Part shown: piece after piece, positions 4,166 through 12,653 of the stretch
How the letters are laid out: each line of letters starts with the position of its first letter
How positions within the stretch are numbered: position 1 is the stretch's first letter
UHGV virus genome: UHGV-0237147
DNA length: 14,066 nt
Direction: 5' to 3' (one strand)
Source of the DNA: a virus
Program-made: the position numbers and the translations under genes
Notes under the pieces: model-generated
The model's database searches: none
What the model was told of the DNA's origin: nothing
The model's input: only the letters and a program-made list of their open reading frames with translations

Positions 4166-4192
4166 AATAAAAAAGGCCACCCGAAGGTGGCC
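4166..4192 (-). terminator. Rho-independent terminator between the AT-rich accessory module and the holin
   Basis: Perfect stem GGCCACC (4175-4181) / GGTGGCC (4186-4192) with loop CGAA; on the minus-strand RNA it is followed by a U-run (plus-strand AATAAAAAA 4166-4174). Confidence 0.7.
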
Positions 4193-4221
4193 TTTAATGT
4201 GATTCTTTTGCTGAATTATTT

Positions 4222-4800
4222 CTAAGCGGTAGCGACTACAACCTTACTCAGGAAACCATCATTACTAAGAAGAATGGCTTTCTCGAACTGTTTTGCTTTA
4301 AACCACTGCAAATATTTTGTTGCCGTTGAGTTGGCAACACTAAACACTTTTCCGATGAGCATAAAGCTCAACACAACAGGTGCAATGTAAAGCAGGAATG
4401 GTAGATTGTTTGCCACCAGAGCCTTATCCATTACTTTTACTGACTCAGACACAGCCTGAAGCAATTCTTCATTTTCACATGCAAACAGCACCTTGGCATG
4501 TTTGTTAACTCTTTCTTTGATTTCAGGGTTTCGAGCAAAGTTGATTTCCGCTCTGATCTTGTTACCAATTGTTAACAGGTGAAGTCTGTTGATCGTGTTG
4601 TTTAAGCCGTCGTGGATAAGAACAGCTGCTTTCATGTCCTTAGGGCTAAGATTGCCTGAAATAATTTCATTTCGAACTTTATCACGAATTTCGAAGAGCT
4701 CATTCCTAAAAGAAAGCCTCAATGATGGCTGCAAAATCCTTTCGTAAATGAAATGAAATGCAGCAAAAGCACATAGCGTGAAAAACAACGCAGTGATCAT
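4222..4800 (-). CDS. Membrane-anchored protein of unknown function (192 aa), second gene of the accessory (moron) module between Q and the lysis genes
   Basis: ATG 4800 with strong RBS GGAGGA at 6 nt spacing; N-terminal TM (ITALFFTLCAFAAFHFI), soluble central domain, second hydrophobic segment near the C-terminus (LPFLLYIAPVVLSFMLIGKVF); region appears AT-rich relative to flanking genes. Confidence 0.7.
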   Translation of the reverse strand: MITALFFTLCAFAAFHFIYERILQPSLRLSFRNELFEIRDKVRNEIISGNLSPKDMKAAVLIHDGLNNTINRLHLLTIGNKIRAEINFARNPEIKERVNKHAKVLFACENEELLQAVSESVKVMDKALVANNLPFLLYIAPVVLSFMLIGKVFSVANSTATKYLQWFKAKQFEKAILLSNDGFLSKVVVATA

Positions 4801-5206: not shown

Positions 5207-5324
5207 ATTGTTAGTTATAGTCACGTTTTGAAGGGTAATTAATCTTATCAAAATGTGATGATTAAATTCAAAGATTTACATCAATAAAATCTAGTTGCGG
5301 CAATAGGTTATAATTTAAAAGGAA

Positions 5325-5346
5325 AAACCCGCACGATGGCGGGTTT
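5325..5346 (-). terminator. Hairpin terminator about 50 nt downstream of the Q-like gene (bidirectional; candidate tR-prime-like terminator)
   Basis: Stem AAACCCGC (5325-5332) / GCGGGTTT (5339-5346), loop ACGATG; T-run follows on the plus strand (CTTTTTGTT) and a U-rich tract follows on the minus-strand RNA as well. Confidence 0.6.
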
Positions 5347-5396
5347 CTTTTTGTTCTGTTGCTCAGTTCGCTTTAACGTCCCGAGCTTAACACAAT
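5347..5396 (-). promoter_or_regulatory. Candidate late-promoter / antiterminator-loading region between the Q-like gene and the hairpin terminator
   Basis: Positional inference only (in lambdoid phages the late promoter and qut site lie just downstream of Q, before tR-prime); no convincing -35/-10 hexamers identified by eye. Confidence 0.25.
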
Positions 5397-5975
5397 TTAA
5401 GCACTTCCCGCGCAACTATTCAAGTAGAATCTGTCGCTATTTGTGCCGAATGCGTCACACATTGGCTTGTATAGCATCGATTCTGCTACATTTAGCCAAA
5501 CATCAATTCGACTTTCACAGGTTCGCAAACACCATTCAGGATGTTTTGCATTTAAGTCTCTGGCCATCGCCTTTTTGCTCAGGCGCTTGATATATCGATC
5601 TTCAATAAGAGCGTATAACTTCTTATGCCCTGACTGCACAAGGATACCGCTGAGTACAGCGTTGATGGCCAGCGCTTCTTCATCGGTACAGAACGCCAGA
5701 CCGCTTTTATTCTTCCCTTCCAGAATCTCTTTGAGGAACGCTTCCAGTTCGGGTTTGCTGATACCCGCTTTCTTCATCCGGCGTAGCGCTTCGTTGATTG
5801 CCGTTTTGGTGATTTTTCCGGATGTCAGTAGCTGGTTAAACATGTTCCCACCACTACCGCCGCCGATATAAGACCAGCGGCCCCACATGCGCAACTTACC
5901 CTGTATCCAGATGCTTTCCAGAGTACGAAGACGAACCATTTCACCAGCCTTGCCAACTTCAGAAGGATTAATCAT
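5397..5975 (-). CDS. Putative late-gene antitermination protein (Q-like), 192 aa
   Basis: Sits directly upstream of the terminator and lysis region; RBS GGAGAAAG; N-terminal motif LRMWGRWS resembles the conserved RWGxW motif I recall in phage-82/DLP12-type Q proteins; the rest of the protein is not confidently matched. Confidence 0.5.
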   Translation of the reverse strand: MINPSEVGKAGEMVRLRTLESIWIQGKLRMWGRWSYIGGGSGGNMFNQLLTSGKITKTAINEALRRMKKAGISKPELEAFLKEILEGKNKSGLAFCTDEEALAINAVLSGILVQSGHKKLYALIEDRYIKRLSKKAMARDLNAKHPEWCLRTCESRIDVWLNVAESMLYKPMCDAFGTNSDRFYLNSCAGSA

Positions 5976-5989
5976 TAAACTTTCTCCAT

Positions 5990-7039
5990 TTATGCCAGCA
6001 CGCCAATTGCCAGCGCTCGATCTATAACCCGAAAAACTAGGACCAGTTGGTCATCGTATTTCGCTTCAAATGCCACGGGATCAGCATGCAACTCGTTGTG
6101 ATGTGCTCTGCACAGCGGTATCACAAACAGGTCGTGTGCTTTTGTACCCATTCCACCCTGCCCGTGGCCAATCAGGTGGTGGGGGTCGTCTGCGGGTTTA
6201 TTGCAACAAACACAGGGTTGTGTTTTAACCCAGCGGGTGTACGTCTCATTTATCCAGCGGCGACGTTTTGGCCTGAGCATGAAAGACTCCGGAGACTCCG
6301 GATCGACGGTTAACGTCAGTATTGGCTTTTGGGTTTCCACATCCAGGCTGTCTGACCGCCGAGCTGGTAACGTTTCAATCGGCCTGACTTTTTCCTGCAT
6401 AATGCTGGTGGCCGGCGGCATAGGTACGATGTCACTTTCCCGGTAAACAGATAATAATGGTTCGTCTGGCAGCCGTAGTGCCCGCTGCGCCATTCCTTCG
6501 GTGACAGCATCAGCGACACCAGATTGAACCGCCCACCAGCAAAGTTCGGCTAAAGAGAGGGAGCGCTCTTTGTTGTAGCCAAGCCCAGCCAGTACGGTAT
6601 CAATAATCCATTCGGCAACATTGTTCAGCGCAAGCGCCTGCAATCTTTCCGTTGTCTGCCCGCGCAATTTGTTATCGCAGTGCCAGCACACCACCAACGC
6701 GCCAGGCGGATGCCATAGTGTCGTTAGCTCGGCATGATGGTAATCAGAAAAAGGGTACTGACACTTTTTAATGCGCTGACGAAGCCAGAACTCAAGCCCG
6801 GACATACCACCAGCAGCAGTAATGACCCGTTCATCGGTAAAGAAAGTGTGAAGGCTGGGATCCTCCAGTAGCGGTTGCTGTGCATCGGGGATCCGACCAG
6901 ACGGAAGCCGGGCCATGTTTTCTGGCTCCCGTTCAACCAGCACGCGACCTGATGCAAACAGGGGCATTAACTCCCGTCCTGGCTTGAACAGCACCACGCC
7001 AAGGCGTGGCACCATTTCAGGGGTAAGTAAGGCTCTCAA
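5990..7039 (-). CDS. DUF968-like prophage protein with a C-terminal HNH-type Cys/His motif (349 aa, TTG start; alternative ATG at 7015); resembles E. coli Qin prophage YdfU
   Basis: C-terminal CVCCNKPADDPHHLIGHGQGGMGTKAHDLFVIPLCRAHHNELH is an HNH-like metal-binding motif; size and position next to the Q-like gene match the YdfU family as I recall it; RBS AAGGGG upstream of TTG 7039. Confidence 0.6.
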   Translation of the reverse strand: MRALLTPEMVPRLGVVLFKPGRELMPLFASGRVLVEREPENMARLPSGRIPDAQQPLLEDPSLHTFFTDERVITAAGGMSGLEFWLRQRIKKCQYPFSDYHHAELTTLWHPPGALVVCWHCDNKLRGQTTERLQALALNNVAEWIIDTVLAGLGYNKERSLSLAELCWWAVQSGVADAVTEGMAQRALRLPDEPLLSVYRESDIVPMPPATSIMQEKVRPIETLPARRSDSLDVETQKPILTLTVDPESPESFMLRPKRRRWINETYTRWVKTQPCVCCNKPADDPHHLIGHGQGGMGTKAHDLFVIPLCRAHHNELHADPVAFEAKYDDQLVLVFRVIDRALAIGVLA

Positions 7040-7049
7040 TGCCCACCCC

Positions 7050-7571
7050 TTATACCGTCAGATCTTTAAATTTCTGTACGGCCTTCCCCATGTCCGCCAT
7101 AGCATCCACAAACTCATCAAACTTACGGCTTGCCATTCCATAAGCCTGGAGGATTTCAAGCTTCAGAGGATCGAGTTGCTTTTTTATTTCAGCGCGGTCA
7201 CCTGCCTTTTTTTCAGCTTCTTCAGCGGCACGAATGAGGGCTTCAGCCTGCTTGCGTAATTCTTCAGGGGTCACGGTTGGCTTATTCAAAGTGGCTTCCT
7301 TCAATGTCTTCGACGACGCAATAACCGGCGCCACGGATTTATGACCAAACTTAGGGTGATGCAGGGTTGTTGTCCTGCCGTCATCAGTAATGCAGAGCAG
7401 GCTGTTTTCGCGGATGATATCGATCAGGTTTTCTTTATCCTTCCGGCTCAACGAGCTATATGCTGATACTTTGTGCGTCAGATGGGTGAGCGTTGCCCCA
7501 TCAGGTTGTTTTTCAACAAACCGTTTAACCCTGGACAATACAGGCTGAAGGTGCGGAGGGGTCACTCTCAC
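7050..7571 (-). CDS. Hypothetical phage protein (173 aa, GTG start overlapping the upstream stop)
   Basis: Long ORF translationally coupled to the Ant gene (GTGA overlap); C-terminal half Lys/Glu/Ala-rich and predicted helical. No family recognised. Confidence 0.5.
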   Translation of the reverse strand: MRVTPPHLQPVLSRVKRFVEKQPDGATLTHLTHKVSAYSSLSRKDKENLIDIIRENSLLCITDDGRTTTLHHPKFGHKSVAPVIASSKTLKEATLNKPTVTPEELRKQAEALIRAAEEAEKKAGDRAEIKKQLDPLKLEILQAYGMASRKFDEFVDAMADMGKAVQKFKDLTV

Positions 7572-8389
7572 TGGAGACCCCCTGCTAAATCTTTATCGTG
7601 GGTAAAACTACCGTTCCAGGTGACCTTCATCGGAAGCTTCCCCTTCAGGTAGTTTTTGTACAGCCAGACAGCGCCTTCACGTAGCAGGACGGGCTGGTAG
7701 GTAGTAAAGCTCACCGCAGAGTTTGGCGATACTTTACTGCTTTTCTCGGTGAGGTATTTGTCGCGGGCATACGAACGAACACGCCACTGTGCACTGCGGC
7801 CTTCGGGATTGTCGTCGTACAGCCAGTTAGCAGAGACAAGCCAGGCACTGATCTTGGAGGTATTCACACCATTCAAACGCTTACAGAACTGTACAGGGGA
7901 AAGCCCGTCAGTGAAGAGACTCTCGAGATGCTCGATATATTCGGCCTGCTGGTGGGTAACTGTTTCCGCGCGCTGCCTGGCTTCAAATTCATCAGCCCAT
8001 GCTCTCGCAGCCTGTGCCGGATCAGAGAAATTTGGTAATGATGGTGTACCAACTCGCATTTTCGCTTGTTGTTCGCATGTGATGAAATAACGGCGAACCT
8101 GACGACCCTTCTCGTTTCTCTCCACCATCGCCAGTTCTTTACCCATATCAATGGTGATCAGGTAATCAACGGTTGGGCGTCCACCGAGGGGGTTCTCGCC
8201 AGAATTGGCGTAAACCACATAATCAGTATTTTCAGCAAAACCATACTGACTGATACGCCCTTTAATCCAGTTGGTGAAATCACGCCCAACGCCGAGAAAG
8301 GCATGTAACCTTTTAGCGCTGACCATCGGGGTTATGTGGTTGCCAATATTGCCCTGAGTGATCGGGATGATCTGATGTAGCTGACTCAT
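7568..8389 (-). CDS. Phage antirepressor (AntA/AntB N-terminal domain family), 273 aa
   Basis: N-terminal region SAKRLHAFLGVGRDFTNWIKGRISQYGFAENTDYVV ... DYLITIDMGKELAMVERNEKGRQVRRYFITCE matches the conserved antirepressor N-domain pattern; RBS GGGGAGG; ATGA overlap with the upstream gene. Confidence 0.75.
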   Translation of the reverse strand: MSQLHQIIPITQGNIGNHITPMVSAKRLHAFLGVGRDFTNWIKGRISQYGFAENTDYVVYANSGENPLGGRPTVDYLITIDMGKELAMVERNEKGRQVRRYFITCEQQAKMRVGTPSLPNFSDPAQAARAWADEFEARQRAETVTHQQAEYIEHLESLFTDGLSPVQFCKRLNGVNTSKISAWLVSANWLYDDNPEGRSAQWRVRSYARDKYLTEKSSKVSPNSAVSFTTYQPVLLREGAVWLYKNYLKGKLPMKVTWNGSFTHDKDLAGGLQ

Positions 8390-8757
8390 CTTGCCTCCCC
8401 GTTGCGCAGATCGCTGATAAAAGGGAGATTGCTCAGAACGCGAACATAAAAGTCAGGGCTCAACCAGAGGGCATAGGCAAAAACCAACTCCTGAGAGGCG
8501 AAAGTACCCTGTAAGACTCCACCGCGAATAACATGCAACTTTTCCCAACGTTCACCAGGGAGAGCATTTAGAATTCTTTTTGCAGTTAGCGTCCTGAGAT
8601 AAAACGCAGGTTTTTTGGACGCAGACCCACCTGAAGCCTTATGAATATCATTGAGACTATAAAGATTTGGTTCGAATGAGTTGATTAAACATCCATCAAC
8701 AACAAGATAAGAGTCTTTTTTGGGCGTAGCAGTGCCCATAACATGATGATTGCTCAT
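8386..8757 (-). CDS. KilA-N domain protein (123 aa from ATG 8757; the ORF extends upstream to 8862 but that part overlaps rusA and looks non-coding)
   Basis: Motifs YSLNDIHKASGG, PAFYLRT and GTFASQELVFAYALWLSPDFYVRV are characteristic of the KilA-N DNA-binding domain; RBS GGAGAG upstream of ATG 8757. Confidence 0.7.
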   Translation of the reverse strand: MSNHHVMGTATPKKDSYLVVDGCLINSFEPNLYSLNDIHKASGGSASKKPAFYLRTLTAKRILNALPGERWEKLHVIRGGVLQGTFASQELVFAYALWLSPDFYVRVLSNLPFISDLRNGEAR

Positions 8758-8843
8758 ATTCTCTCCATACTCTGATTGTTGCGAAGGGCCTGCACGCCCT
8801 TTTCGCTTGCACTTTCCGACATTACTGCCATAACGACCAATAT

Positions 8844-9242
8844 TCAACCCACAGCTGGACATATAACCACCTCTTTTTTATATGCCGTTATGGTTATCTC
8901 AACTTTTCCCTTCGGTACTATCGGTCCCCATTCCACCAGCATGCGCTTAATCTGGCTGTCGTCTTCCCAGACACCCGCATGCGTCAGCGCGTCAAACAGG
9001 GCTTTGTTGTAATTATCGATATCCCGGCGGCGCGCATCCGGCGGGTACAGAGTGATTTCTACCGCTGCCAGTTCAGTCGATGGCTTCGGGAGACGTCGTA
9101 ATTGCTCAATGATCGCCACGCAGGCAGCGCTCTGGTATTTACGGCCATCAGCGCTAATGAGGTGACGACCGGCCAGCGGCCCCTTGTTAGGGGAGCGCCA
9201 GTAAGTGTTCACGCTCGGAGGAAAAGGCAGGATCAATTTCAC
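8844..9242 (-). CDS. rusA: Holliday-junction resolvase RusA (crossover junction endodeoxyribonuclease), 132 aa, GTG start
   Basis: N-terminus MKLILPFPPSVNTYW and the acidic motif RRRDIDNYNKALFDALTHAGVWEDDSQI match the RusA family; GTGA overlap with the methyltransferase stop; RBS GGGGAGAGG. Confidence 0.85.
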   Translation of the reverse strand: MKLILPFPPSVNTYWRSPNKGPLAGRHLISADGRKYQSAACVAIIEQLRRLPKPSTELAAVEITLYPPDARRRDIDNYNKALFDALTHAGVWEDDSQIKRMLVEWGPIVPKGKVEITITAYKKEVVICPAVG

Positions 9243-10558
9243 GCGGCCTCTCCCCGCATATTGCGAACAAGTTCAGAAGCGGCAGTAATGATTTCGCTGG
9301 TGGCCGTTCGTTCCAGCCAGAGTTGATTGATGTTGGCTTTCAGCTTGTTCTGCTGTGAATCATCCAGCATGTCAGCGCCATCCACCTGATCGAATACAAT
9401 TCCAACCTCCAGCGGCCAGATACGGGACTCGGGAAGCGGATCCGCTACTGGTTTAGCTTTCTCACGGATGTGCATGCGGATCTGGCGAATATTGGACCAA
9501 CTGGAAACATCCAGGCTTCCCATAGCTGCAATGAAATCAGTACTGTTCATGCCATATTCACCAGATGCTTCAAGGGCAACAGTCCGAATACGTTCCGACA
9601 TATCCAGGTGCGCAGCAGCGTCATCGAATTCAATCGACAACAGCCACTCATCCACACCGAACAAAATACTCTCACGAATAAGCAGCTTCGCTTTGTCGAT
9701 CGTTAATGGTGATACCTGAGTGAATTCCGGTGCTTCGACAGAATCCGCCGCCCAGGTATGCCCAAACTTCGATTCACTGAATGTGTATTCTTCTTTATCG
9801 CCGAACGCAGCTCTAACGCATGCCCACGCCTCTACACCGCTGACATCAAAAATATCTTTCTGGGTGAGTGGCAACTCTACTTCTGGCTTGTCAGCTACAG
9901 ATGGTGTGGCAGTTGCAGGTTGAGACTTGCTGACAGCAAATTGCGCCAAAGTCATAAACGCCTGCCCTTTTGCCTCCAGTTCTGTACGGTTGATATAGCT
10001 GAACCGCTCACCACGCCATGACTTATCGAATACAGCTATGGCACCGGCAAAAAACGCGCTGGTGGGCTTCTGTTTTTCGTCAGCAGGTACAAACCACACA
10101 GGCAGATCGAACCCAATGCGCCCGCGAATGAATACAATGTGATCGGCATCTTCCGGCCACCACGTTTCACTCGGCGCGGCTTTTATCAGGAATACATAGC
10201 GACCGCCCTTTTCGCGCTGGGCTGCTGCGTACTTCATGATGTGCGTCATACCAGTGATCGCCTGATTCTCGTGGTACTGCGAACGGCTATACGGTGGGTT
10301 GCCATAACCTGCACCACCTAGTTCTGCCAGACGTTCAGACCAATCCTGGGTCAGCGCGTTATCTTCGGCGGTGTACCATGCCGGGCATTTCGCGTTGTCG
10401 TCGTCAGCAAACAAGTCCAGAACTAATGGGCCAAATAACGCGTTGATCCCCCAGAAAAGCAGATCAGGTGTCCTCCACTGATCTCCAACTTCTTTCAATT
10501 CGTGAGCTGGTTTACTGCGCAGTTCAGCCAGCGCCTGGCAATACTTATTTGGCATCAT
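9239..10558 (-). CDS. Phage Dam-family DNA N6-adenine methyltransferase fused to an acidic C-terminal domain of about 240 aa of unknown function (439 aa total)
   Basis: N-terminal roughly 190 aa carry WRTPDLLFWGINALFGPLVLDLFADDDN and the NPPY catalytic motif (GNPPYSRS) typical of phage Dam methyltransferases; the remainder (after a Pro/Ala/Thr linker QPATATPSVADKPEVELPL) is acidic and unrecognised. ATGA overlap with the upstream replication-gene stop. Confidence 0.75.
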   Translation of the reverse strand: MMPNKYCQALAELRSKPAHELKEVGDQWRTPDLLFWGINALFGPLVLDLFADDDNAKCPAWYTAEDNALTQDWSERLAELGGAGYGNPPYSRSQYHENQAITGMTHIMKYAAAQREKGGRYVFLIKAAPSETWWPEDADHIVFIRGRIGFDLPVWFVPADEKQKPTSAFFAGAIAVFDKSWRGERFSYINRTELEAKGQAFMTLAQFAVSKSQPATATPSVADKPEVELPLTQKDIFDVSGVEAWACVRAAFGDKEEYTFSESKFGHTWAADSVEAPEFTQVSPLTIDKAKLLIRESILFGVDEWLLSIEFDDAAAHLDMSERIRTVALEASGEYGMNSTDFIAAMGSLDVSSWSNIRQIRMHIREKAKPVADPLPESRIWPLEVGIVFDQVDGADMLDDSQQNKLKANINQLWLERTATSEIITAASELVRNMRGEAA

Positions 10559-11421
10559 GAGCGGAACCCCGAATTTTCTGGCAGTGAATAGTCAACATTT
10601 TGGAAGTTTGCGCGGCTGGCTGAGTTAGTCGCCCATTTACCGTTAACGCGTTCAGGTCGCCCAGCGGCAGACCATTTGGTCGCGCTTTGCAGGTAACCGG
10701 GGAAGTTTTTTGGAATAAACAGAGTTGCCGGGCGGAGGTATTGAGCCTGCTCGCTATCACGCCAATCAGCGTTTTTGTAATCCACCACAAGGCACAGATC
10801 ATCAACAGTGAACTGTTCCCGCAGACGGGCGCGAATGTTCTCCAGCGACGTGCTGCATACCTGGTAGCGTGAACCAGTTGTCTGGTTCAGGTAAGACAAA
10901 ACCTGTCTGGCCTGATCAGTAATCACAACCTCAGGGTCGGGTTGCGCCGCAACCGGACAAGAGGGTTTTGAAGTTACTTGTGGATCTTGTTTTGATTTTA
11001 CTGACGGATCCCCGCCAGATTCTGACGGGTCAAAACCTCCGTTTTTGCCAGATTTCGACGGGTCAGTTTTTGAGGCGTCAAATTTTGATGCGTCAGATTT
11101 TGACGTGTCAGAATCTGACAGTTGAGAAAATGCGGCAGCCTGAAGTTTCGCCACATTCAGTCGGTACACGTTCGACGCATTACGGTTACCATTACGGCGC
11201 TGTGTACGCGTGAGCCAGCCATCTTTTTCAAGCTTTGCGATTGCCGTTCTGATAGTGCTCGGCCCAGCGCCAAGCTGGCGAGCAATAGTTTCAATAGACG
11301 GCCAGCACACGCCCTCATCGCTGCTGAAATCAGCAAGGCGAGCCATGATCGCGACACTAGACAACTTCATGCCCGACGCCGCGCAACCATCCCATACGTA
11401 GCCGGTTAATTTAGTGCTCAT
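10555..11421 (-). CDS. Replication initiation protein (lambda O-like: N-terminal HTH DNA-binding domain, low-complexity Ser/Lys/Asp linker, conserved phage C-terminal replication domain), 288 aa
   Basis: N-terminal winged-helix-like region (ETIARQLGAGPSTIRTAIAKLEKDGWL); C-terminal region (QARQVLSYLNQTTGSRYQ ... DYKNADWRDSEQAQYLRPATLF) resembles the conserved phage replication C-terminal domain (TIGR02220-like, from memory); iterons lie inside the gene as for lambda ori. Confidence 0.7.
   Translation of the reverse strand: MSTKLTGYVWDGCAASGMKLSSVAIMARLADFSSDEGVCWPSIETIARQLGAGPSTIRTAIAKLEKDGWLTRTQRRNGNRNASNVYRLNVAKLQAAAFSQLSDSDTSKSDASKFDASKTDPSKSGKNGGFDPSESGGDPSVKSKQDPQVTSKPSCPVAAQPDPEVVITDQARQVLSYLNQTTGSRYQVCSTSLENIRARLREQFTVDDLCLVVDYKNADWRDSEQAQYLRPATLFIPKNFPGYLQSATKWSAAGRPERVNGKWATNSASRANFQNVDYSLPENSGFRS
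11002..11111. repeat. Iteron array (candidate origin of replication): imperfect repeats with palindromic cores TGAyGnGTCA at 11023-11032, 11056-11065, 11071-11080, 11087-11096, 11101-11110, and a partial copy at 11002-11011
   Basis: Read directly from the sequence: tgacgggtca, cgacgggtca, tgaggcgtca, tgatgcgtca, tgacgtgtca, each flanked by a short T/A run; located inside the replication gene where they encode the SK[ST]D low-complexity linker. Confidence 0.7.
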
Positions 11422-11677
11422 GATCGTCCGTTATCTCCCTGAACTTTTGCCTGAATTGCTCAAGTGGGCTGAAGCATTCGTGCAGGTAGCCATCACGCAG
11501 ATAGATAACGCGCTGTGTTTCTGGCTCCCAGCGGATAACACGGACTGGCACTCCACGGTGGTCTTTGAACCTTCGGTTAAGTTCGCGCACAGGCGTTTTG
11601 CCCTCCGGTTGTAGACCCCCACAATTGAAACCGCCCTACTGTGGTTACACGGAACCCAGCGGTTTGATAATCTGCGT

Positions 11678-11836
11678 TCATACCGAAACAACGGAGTACC
11701 CGAAACCGGGATCATCCTGAGTTGCGGTAGACGGTTAAAAGCCGTTAAACTGCTCATGCGGATTATTTCTCCATACTCGAAGAGTTGTTCGCCAAGTCGC
11801 CCGGAGCTGCACACTCGCGGGCGTCACTCTTTTCTG
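11678..11836 (+). ncRNA. Candidate OOP-like antisense RNA (plus-strand transcript antisense to the 3' end of the CII-like gene)
   Basis: Sigma-70-like promoter GTTACA (11644-11649) - 16 bp - GATAAT (11666-11671) on the plus strand; intrinsic terminator at 11797-11836 inside the 3' end of the minus-strand CII-like gene; no convincing plus-strand ORF with an RBS in between. Inference by analogy to lambda OOP. Confidence 0.3.
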
Positions 11837-12314
11837 CGACACAAAAAACTCGATAAAGAAGCGCTACGTGCTCCTGGAACTTCGCGATAACCTGATAGCT
11901 GTTTTCCTCAATCTGAGCGCGCTCATCTGCGTCAATTACCCCATCAGCCGTGGCTTTACGTACAAAATTAGAATGACGGCCTATCCATTCGATGGACTCC
12001 ATCAGGCGCTGGTTGATATCGGCGTTATCCAGATCATCAACATCTGCCAGCGGTACAAATACGCCCTGAGAATGGCGCGCAACGGCATCAGCTATATGAG
12101 TTGAACCACCAGCACGTTGTAAAACCATTGCCCAGCCCAGTGGGAAGATCTGGTCGCCGTCAACACGAAGGCGGTTAAACAATGCGTTCTCTGTCACACC
12201 CAACCATTCCGCCGCCTCAGCATATCCACCAGGCAGATCGGTAATCGTTTTTTTAATCGCTACCACCAGCCAGGAAGGCTGACGCTCGACTTTCCAAATA
12301 GGTTCGTTACCCAC
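11763..12314 (-). CDS. CII-like early regulator (YdaT-family HTH protein), 183 aa, GTG start
   Basis: Occupies the cII position directly downstream of the Cro-like gene (8-nt overlap); HTH-like segment GGYAEAAEWLGVTENALFNRL; RBS GGGAGGAG upstream of GTG 12314; family assignment from memory of YdaS/YdaT pairs. Confidence 0.5.
   Translation of the reverse strand: MGNEPIWKVERQPSWLVVAIKKTITDLPGGYAEAAEWLGVTENALFNRLRVDGDQIFPLGWAMVLQRAGGSTHIADAVARHSQGVFVPLADVDDLDNADINQRLMESIEWIGRHSNFVRKATADGVIDADERAQIEENSYQVIAKFQEHVALLYRVFCVAEKSDARECAAPGDLANNSSSMEK
11797..11836 (+). terminator. Plus-strand rho-independent terminator embedded in the 3' end of the minus-strand CII-like gene
   Basis: GC-rich stem CGCCCG (11798-11803) / CGGGCG (11818-11823), extendable with one bulge, followed by TCACTCTTTTCTG; no T-run on the opposite strand. 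Confidence 0.45.
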
Positions 12315-12552
12315 GGCTCCTCCCTTCTTCCTGTGGTTTGAGTTTTACTGAAGCTTCGCTACGCTTTTCGTAAAGGTCGGGATGGAAAACCAATTTCCCC
12401 CCAGTCCGATAGGCTGCTTCTGCTGCACGTCCTTTCGGGATTAGGCGACCAGTTCTATTACGCCACTGGTAAACGGCCTCGCTTGTGATTCCAAAAAATT
12501 CGGCAACTTTCTCAGTACTGCCGAAGTAGTTTTCAATATCATCGGTTGTCAT
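12307..12552 (-). CDS. Cro-like repressor (YdaS family HTH protein), 81 aa
   Basis: Divergent from the CI-like gene; RBS AGGAGG 4-5 nt upstream of ATG 12552; motif VAEFFGITSEAVYQWRNR ... FHPDLY matches the YdaS-type Cro-like family as I recall it. Confidence 0.7.
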   Translation of the reverse strand: MTTDDIENYFGSTEKVAEFFGITSEAVYQWRNRTGRLIPKGRAAEAAYRTGGKLVFHPDLYEKRSEASVKLKPQEEGRSRG

Positions 12553-12653
12553 AACGCCTCCTTAGCTAAGTTTGATTAGATATTAATAACCAATCTAACT
12601 TTGGTCAATAAAAACTAAGATTGCTTAGCCTTTTAATTTTTTATGGTGTTCAA
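12553..12653. promoter_or_regulatory. Divergent promoter/operator region between the Cro-like and CI-like genes
   Basis: Perfect palindrome CTTAGCTAAG (12561-12570); inverted repeat CTAAG-attg-CTTAG (12615-12628); inverted repeat TTAGAT (12575-12580) ... ATCTAA (12593-12598); AT-rich 101-bp spacer between divergent start codons. Confidence 0.6.

Follow-up and report, generated by a model that had tools for sequence, protein, structure and literature searches.

Overlapping stop/start codons and GTG/TTG starts in the early-right operon of a lambda-like prophage, UHGV-0237147

The early-right operon and its genes

UHGV-0237147 is a viral genome carrying a lambda-like prophage whose early-right (PR) operon is the subject of this work; it was analysed as one stretch of 14,066 nucleotides (nt) that we refer to as the window. 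All genes from cro to Q lie on its minus strand, in the order cro, YmfL/CII-like, DUF4222, O-like initiator, Dam, RusA, KilA-N, AntA, a gene of 173 amino acids (aa), DUF968/YdfU and Q (Table 1). A first-pass annotation had drawn attention to two properties of this region, namely that several genes begin with GTG or TTG and that many stop codons overlap the start codon of the next gene, and had read them as a sign of tight translational coupling in a nin-like operon. The results presented below make it very likely that both properties are the normal compact packing of a lambda-like early operon.

Table 1. Genes and other features of the early-right region, in window coordinates, listed from the cI-like repressor towards Q (ORF, open reading frame; HTH, helix-turn-helix; PGAP, the NCBI Prokaryotic Genome Annotation Pipeline)
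Feature	Position	Strand	Start codon	Length	Remarks
cI-like repressor	12621-13280 (longest ORF)	plus			Peptidase_S24 + HTH
PR-like sigma-70 promoter	12580..12608	minus			TTGACC-17-TAATAT, 5' of cro; divergent from the cI-like repressor
cro-like gene	12307..12552	minus	ATG	81 aa	Pfam P22_Cro; exact protein public
YmfL/CII-like (CP76) regulator	11763..12314	minus	GTG	183 aa	Pfam, PHROG, PGAP name
Conserved non-coding gap, ymfL-DUF4222	11591..11762	minus		172 nt	invariant blocks, small hairpins
DUF4222 gene	11411..11590	minus	GTG	59 aa	Pfam; exact protein public
O-like replication initiator	10555..11421	minus	ATG		HTH_36 + Phg_2220_C
Dam-type N6-adenine methyltransferase fusion	9239..10558	minus	ATG	439 aa	Pfam, PHROG
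RusA Holliday-junction resolvase	8844..9242	minus	GTG	132 aa	Pfam; exact protein public
Gap, RusA-KilA-N	8758..8843	minus		86 nt	conserved promoter-like hexamers + hairpin
KilA-N domain gene	8386..8757	minus	ATG 8757 or ATG 8862	123 aa or 158 aa	start at 8757 probable
AntA/AntB antirepressor-family gene	7568..8389	minus	ATG		domain match; strong Shine-Dalgarno GGGGAGG
173-aa gene, unnamed	7050..7571	minus	GTG	173 aa	phrog_2539; exact protein public
DUF968/YdfU-like HNH-type protein	5990..7039	minus	TTG	349 aa	Pfam, PHROG; exact protein public
Q-type antiterminator	5397..5975	minus	ATG		DUF1133/Phage_antitermQ; end of early operon

The names YdfU, RusA and CII-like, given in the first-pass annotation, are borne out by Pfam scores above the respective cut-offs. 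DUF968/YdfU (PF06147) scored 253.6 bits against a cut-off of 27.8, and the protein also matched phrog_96 end to end, over residues 1-349. RusA (PF05866) scored 58.9 bits against a cut-off of 22.8, with residues 6-118 aligned to profile positions 1-123. YmfL matched Phage_CP76 (CII) with 38.1 bits against a cut-off of 26 and phrog_101 at 1e-57, its gene lies directly after cro, and its PGAP name is "YmfL family putative regulatory protein". By these matches it is a CII of the CP76 type, with a predicted regulatory function.

Junctions between the genes

Read on the reverse complement, the four junctions singled out initially are exact overlaps of 4 nt. At 10555-10558 the letters tcat give ATGA on the coding strand and join the stop of the O-like gene to the start of Dam, and the same tetranucleotide at 8386-8389 joins KilA-N to AntA; at 9239-9242 (Dam stop, RusA start) and at 7568-7571 (AntA stop, start of the 173-aa gene) tcac gives GTGA. 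The Dam junction in full reads ATGATG, a combination of the -4 (ATGA) and -1 (TGATG) motifs, which are the two commonest overlap motifs. Three features had been missed: the GTG start of DUF4222 at 11590, an 8-nt overlap at 12307-12314 (GTGGGTAA) between the cro stop and the ymfL start, and an 11-nt overlap at 11411-11421 between the DUF4222 stop and the ATG of the O-like gene, which is annotated alike in the related loci L001 and L002. In the order from cro to Q, the spacing between successive genes is -8, +172, -11, -4, -4, +86, -4, -4, +10 and +14, and the RusA/KilA-N value becomes -19 with a KilA-N start at 8862. Overlaps thus account for six of the ten junctions, one of them 8 nt long, one 11 nt and the remaining four 4 nt each. 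The TTG of DUF968 follows the preceding stop after 10 nt, and the two conserved non-coding gaps, of 172 nt between ymfL and DUF4222 and of 86 nt between RusA and KilA-N, split the operon into three blocks.

The overlaps are kept in relatives wherever the same pair of genes adjoins. The junction of cro with ymfL has a different history. The cro product has 81 residues here versus 75 in most relatives, a TAA to GAA change having removed the usual stop (12307-12330); in the E. coli relatives the 75-aa cro does not overlap ymfL. The cro ATG itself is present in all 27 loci with a match (17 distinct upstream contexts).

Evidence that the non-ATG starts are real

Five of the eleven genes from cro to Q open with a codon other than ATG: TTG at 7039 (DUF968), and GTG at 7571 (the 173-aa gene), 9242 (RusA), 11590 (DUF4222) and 12314 (YmfL). 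For the four that had been proposed earlier, all but the one at 11590, the ORF list, in which each is the first start codon of its ORF, and the comparative data agree. A priori, these GTG and TTG codons might not be true starts; translation would then begin at downstream ATGs and the N-terminal extensions would be untranslated. One consideration speaks for this alternative, namely that longest-ORF calls can over-extend, as in the cI-like repressor and probably in the KilA-N gene. To weigh it, 92 related loci were collected and the codon homologous to each proposed start was read, all counts below being of distinct sequences.

At the DUF968 position only start codons were found in the 48 sequences (GTG in 27, ATG in 15 and TTG in 6). 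RusA has ATG in 38 and GTG in 8 of 50 sequences; the remaining 4, which have CTG or TTA at this position, are only distantly related and possess an ATG shortly before it. For DUF4222 the figures are 21 ATG and 6 GTG among 27, for the 173-aa gene 7 GTG and 2 ATG among 9, and for YmfL the codon is GTG in all 27. Orthologues thus have ATG exactly at the proposed position, sometimes in a matched setting: L008 and L016, whose Dam-derived upstream context is identical, have ATGA versus GTGA in the window at the RusA start, and L034 has ATG at the DUF4222 start in an otherwise identical context. ATG is also present at the start of the 173-aa gene in Escherichia phage Lys8385Vzw, where an in-frame stop precedes it by 5 codons, and in Klebsiella phage Kp4866-6, where the stop is 3 codons upstream.

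Nearby codons behave differently. Leucine codons 4-5 of DUF968 occur as six to eight codon types (TTA, CTA, CTG, CTT, ATH and others); codon 3 of RusA, TTG in the window, is CTG, TTA or CTT elsewhere; and codon 3 of the 173-aa gene, GTG in the window, is ATT, TTA or ATG elsewhere. The first ATG of DUF968 in the window (codon 9) is ATG in just 3 of the 48 relatives, most of which have a non-start codon there. In all five genes codons 2-10 vary synonymously among relatives, and because of this variation they must be taken as translated, contrary to what initiation at a downstream ATG would require. Such initiation would moreover remove most of the conserved domain of RusA, of the 173-aa gene and of YmfL, and DUF4222 contains no internal ATG at all. 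On the other side of the start, sequences from different contexts are unrelated up to the ribosome-binding site, and many relatives carry in-frame stops 1-8 codons upstream, including several with a stop 2 codons upstream of ymfL.

Existing annotation points the same way. In the two closest E. coli prophages PGAP has placed the starts at the homologous codons, TTG in one and GTG in the other for DUF968 and GTG in both for RusA, DUF4222 and YmfL; for DUF968 PGAP and phage annotation concur. PGAP was not directly usable for the 173-aa gene, and protein-level matches in three phages were used instead. The five non-ATG starts have Shine-Dalgarno sequences of -8 to -11 kcal/mol, at a spacing of 4-7 nt in four of them and of 11 nt for DUF4222; that of ymfL is a strong GGAGG located 4 nt upstream. 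For the other four genes, NCBI lists exact proteins with these N-termini under Citrobacter freundii, and a 183-aa YmfL with the GTG start, different in one residue, is found on at least 1000 public contigs. Taken together, these results establish the five starts as far as sequence analysis permits, and initiation at downstream ATGs is strongly disfavoured, to the point that we regard it as very improbable.

The residue in question is an Asp (GAC, 11795-11797, minus strand) in the window versus Ala (GCC) in L013 and all other relatives, and it lies beside a conserved hairpin that is described below. This private change is the reason that the exact YmfL of the window is not in the public collection, while the Ala form is. 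L023 and L025 have a second TTG, made by a G to T change, two codons before the start of DUF968 (corresponding to 7045 in the window). Within the same 90% cluster, many of the public DUF968 proteins have 351 aa, not 349, and were presumably called from this extra upstream TTG.

The start of the KilA-N gene

The real start ambiguity of the span is one between two ATGs. KilA-N proteins are public both with 123 aa (start at 8757, RefSeq-style) and with 158 aa (start at 8862), and the PGAP start at the KilA-N position in L001 maps to 8757. The ATG at 8862 is disfavoured; the 35 extra codons vary non-conservatively, and its own conservation is explained by its location inside the C-terminal codons of RusA. 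Judged from these comparisons, ATG 8757 is the probable start.

As the first-pass annotation had warned, a caller confined to ATG would fail in this operon. Such a caller would cut 8 codons from DUF968, about 145 of 173 from the unnamed gene, about 100 of 132 from RusA and 62 of 183 from YmfL, and it would overlook DUF4222 altogether; a truncated YmfL of 121 aa does exist in one public assembly. Modern callers accept GTG and TTG, and the practical warning is largely moot. The value of the present analysis is mainly one of annotation, in that five non-ATG starts are confirmed and the ambiguity in KilA-N is flagged.

Is the pattern unusual?

In bacterial annotation about 82-83% of genes start with ATG, 14% with GTG and 3-4% with TTG. 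Comparing five non-ATG starts in eleven genes with the corresponding 17-18% gives a nominal binomial P of about 0.03, a post hoc value for a region that was picked for this very feature, and start codons are inherited along with gene modules. Among the spacing motifs of prokaryotic genes NTGA (-4) is the most frequent by a wide margin, and the -1 and -8 spacings are also enriched (review PMC12548453). The four -4 junctions among ten are as the literature describes for prokaryotic operons and for lambdoid nin regions. The starts and overlaps show no excess beyond known behaviour.

According to papers that cite them, Kroger and Hobom reportedly described in 1982 the ATGA-linked nin genes as a "chain of interlinked genes" in all lambdoid phages. 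Such linkage in the nin region has been described since 1982 and nothing in the pattern is new. Stop/start-linked genes in lambdoid early operons, like coupling at NTGA, are textbook matter and bring no new biology. As research leads we would single out just two features, the invariant leader of ymfL and the non-coding elements conserved in the two gaps.

Are the overlapping genes translationally coupled?

With such compact packing the overlaps most likely work in the following way. Every start codon comes with a Shine-Dalgarno sequence of its own that lies within the gene before it, and a ribosome that terminates on the upstream gene would either re-initiate at the overlap or keep the site unfolded. 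Either process would tie the output of neighbouring genes together. In E. coli four of five native -4 pairs proved to be translationally coupled, even with Shine-Dalgarno motifs, and in the fifth, bioBF, initiation was de novo (Huber et al. 2019, PMC6728339). By analogy with this published work on other gene pairs, coupling at the present overlaps is plausible.

Several observations weigh against coupling, or at least against a strong form of it. Across the starts of the operon the Shine-Dalgarno energies range from -5.7 to -11.3 kcal/mol, and those at the four -4 starts (Dam -5.7, RusA -8.1, AntA -11.0 and the 173-aa gene -10.1 kcal/mol) could be strong enough for independent initiation. Accessibility, defined as the unpaired probability of the -14 to +5 region in partition-function folding, was 0.30-0.61 at the starts (0.30-0.55 at the overlapped ones) versus 0.46 +/- 0.12 for a background of random operon positions; the starts lie within this background, and the folding gave no evident sign of a sequestering RNA structure at them, a result as compatible with structure-dependent coupling as with its absence. 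Nor are non-ATG codons enriched at overlaps, since three of the five non-ATG starts and three of the six ATG starts are overlapped. The description of the operon as one coupled chain is too strong, given the two conserved gaps, one of which may have its own promoter. Finally, the 8-nt overlap of cro with ymfL is a recent accident, produced by the single TAA to GAA change and without a counterpart in relatives.

The Shine-Dalgarno energies, the accessibility values and the origin of the cro/ymfL overlap also favour a distinct explanation, in which the overlaps are a passive by-product of compaction and each gene is initiated independently from its Shine-Dalgarno sequence, with no important coupling. 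NTGA arises easily, the start codon supplying three of its four bases, and it is to this ease of evolution that the abundance of the -4 spacing has been ascribed (review PMC12548453). The bioBF pair provides a measured precedent. Against such an explanation stand the other four E. coli pairs, coupled despite their Shine-Dalgarno motifs, and the retention of the overlaps in relatives. On balance we think it somewhat unlikely, and retain compact packing with plausible coupling as the preferred interpretation.

The ymfL leader and the choice of start codon

A further possibility is that the non-ATG codons are devices selected to set expression, weak starts that would hold down the amount of particular proteins, such as the CII-like regulator, the RusA nuclease or the DUF968 protein of HNH type. 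The invariance of the ymfL GTG, which comes with a conserved leader whichever type of cro lies upstream, is the best argument for this, and DUF968 has a non-ATG start in 33 of its 48 sequences. Against it, the exchange of ATG, GTG and TTG in RusA, DUF4222, DUF968 and the 173-aa gene, sometimes in identical contexts, looks near-neutral. As for ymfL, the invariance of one base is weak evidence, given that the sequences share descent and that conservation is equally high in the bases around it. We therefore consider selected expression-setting an unlikely account of the non-ATG starts, and compact packing with ordinary variation of the start codon remains preferred.

The conserved leader (12314-12338, minus strand) consists of AACCACAG, about 6 nt, AAGGRG, about 5 nt and the GTG. 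It opens exactly at a mosaic boundary, behind at least ten unrelated cro genes. A second copy of AACCACAG is located at 11639-11646, about 50 nt upstream of the DUF4222 GTG. As a repeated site it was rejected: 0.49 copies are expected and 15 of 200 shuffles reach two, so that the pair is not significant alone.

The 172-nt gap downstream of ymfL is conserved in at least 18 distinct relatives and contains the invariant blocks ACCGCAACT, TGTTTCGGTATGA, TGTAACCACAG, ATTGTGGGGGT and CGGAGGGC. A small hairpin within it, at 11699-11710, shows a compensatory change. The 3' end of ymfL, just upstream of the gap, contains a 10-bp hairpin (11798-11823) that is invariant. Read on the plus strand this hairpin is followed by TCACTCTTTTCT and preceded, at 11644-11671, by a promoter-like GTTACA-16-GATAAT, the -10 of which is not conserved in distant relatives. 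A small ORF in the gap (ATG at about 11742, in a 127-aa ORF at 11431-11814) was rejected because of a 1-nt indel in L022, non-conservative variation and its overlap with DUF4222 in another frame. A search of the whole window against Rfam (E <= 1) returned no match for the gap or the hairpin. The arrangement of promoter-like site, hairpin and TCACTCTTTTCT recalls the OOP antisense RNA that lambda makes opposite cII. The 172-nt element could be an OOP-like antisense RNA or a terminator, or else an antitermination site. It is conceivable, if doubtful, that the ymfL GTG and its leader are a selected translational set-point for a lysis-lysogeny regulator, maybe jointly with this structured element downstream. 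If so, leader and element would form a small regulatory module and the GTG would not be a neutral codon choice.

The 86-nt gap and other features of the window

The promoter-like hexamers of the second gap, TTGAAT at 8847-8842 (overlapping the RusA stop) and TAATGT at 8824-8819, are conserved, with a variable spacer of 17 nt. They are a weak match, scoring about 7/12 of the consensus, which is under the scan threshold. A hairpin at 8781-8806, GCGAAAAGGGC-GUGCAG-GCCCUUCGC, shows two compensatory changes and some mismatches; after it come a Shine-Dalgarno sequence and the ATG at 8757. Downstream genes that are otherwise unrelated, among them KilA-N in the window and ORF6N in E. coli 1943, share their first 13 codons from this ATG (MSNHHVMGTATPK). 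From this arrangement 8758-8862 may be the internal promoter and leader of an antirepressor-type cassette. Among complete E. coli genomes and deposited phages, just one of each carries the element.

In the Dam-type methyltransferase the Pfam Dam domain covers residues 19-200 only and the C-terminal stretch of about 240 residues has no Pfam match; the full length matches PHROG DNA-methyltransferase families. The O-like gene contains, at 11016-11119, five iteron-like repeats spaced by 15 nt (consensus approximately CAGATTTTGACGNGT) with internal inverted symmetry, which sit in a low-complexity linker of the protein. An array of this kind is expected in a lambdoid origin, and the present one probably represents the origin of replication. 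For the cI-like repressor the longest ORF opens at TTG 12621. PGAP in relatives and the position of the HTH favour ATG 12654 (208 aa), and longest-ORF calling over-extends this gene, the true start being ATG 12654.

A terminator-like hairpin of the strong intrinsic type lies 3' of Q (5323-5348, minus strand) and is probably a tR'-like terminator after a short late leader. A second strong intrinsic-terminator hairpin (4169-4224, minus strand) precedes the holin genes. The only Rfam matches in the window, MicX and isrD, are both sub-threshold and both located at this second terminator (about 4169-4224), with none in the span under study. In a consensus scan for promoters and terminators the counts for the window were not above those for shuffles.

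Comparison with relatives and known systems

For most of the operon's proteins an exact copy is deposited at NCBI under Citrobacter freundii, the accession numbers being consecutive, and L013, an IMG/VR contig, is identical over the DUF968 gene. On both grounds the host is very probably C. freundii or a close relative. Related prophages of E. coli (strain 1943, NZ_CP023359; NZ_LR536430) and of Citrobacter murliniae (CP163158), together with the IMG/VR contig IMGVR_UViG_2663762979_000002, agree with the window in gene order and in the start codons of DUF968, RusA, DUF4222 and YmfL. In the E. coli relatives the module at 7040-8720 (KilA-N, AntA and the 173-aa gene) is replaced by ORF6N or Ant genes, and by this comparison it is a mosaic insert. 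Searches for near-identical DNA over 6900-8900 found almost no trace of the module in complete E. coli genomes or among deposited phages.

The -4 junctions share with the pairs coupled by termination-reinitiation that were studied elsewhere (Huber et al. 2019, PMC6728339; review PMC12548453) the NTGA motif and a Shine-Dalgarno sequence inside the upstream gene, and the less common -8 and -1 motifs are present as well. The pairs in which coupling was measured there are cellular ones, from E. coli and Haloferax.

The layout of a lambdoid early-right operon is present, with co-directional genes: a PR-like promoter, cro, an O-like gene, Q and, divergent on the plus strand, a repressor with an S24 peptidase domain. 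Numerous overlaps of the ATGA type, as in lambdoid nin regions, are also found (two ATGA and two GTGA, in addition to the -8 and -11 overlaps). The stretch from Dam to DUF968 resembles the ninR region of lambda and P22-like phages in that it follows the replication genes and precedes Q on the PR transcript and is tightly packed with ATGA-type stop/start overlaps. In function RusA is an analogue of the lambda resolvase Rap/NinG. Unlike lambda ninR, the stretch consists of Dam, RusA, an antirepressor-like KilA-N/AntA pair, the 173-aa gene and DUF968; two of its overlaps use GTG, and it is interrupted by the conserved 86-nt non-coding insert. Neither Pfam nor PHROG gave a match to the Nin families (ninB, C, D, E, F, G, H, I) in the region, and the RusA-type resolvase is the only counterpart of a lambda nin gene. 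The earlier term "nin-like operon" thus holds for position and packing and fails for gene content. Nor is the span a single nin-like block, for it takes in the regulatory genes next to cro and the replication genes. The region is nin-like by where it lies and how tightly its genes are joined, and not by the genes that it contains.

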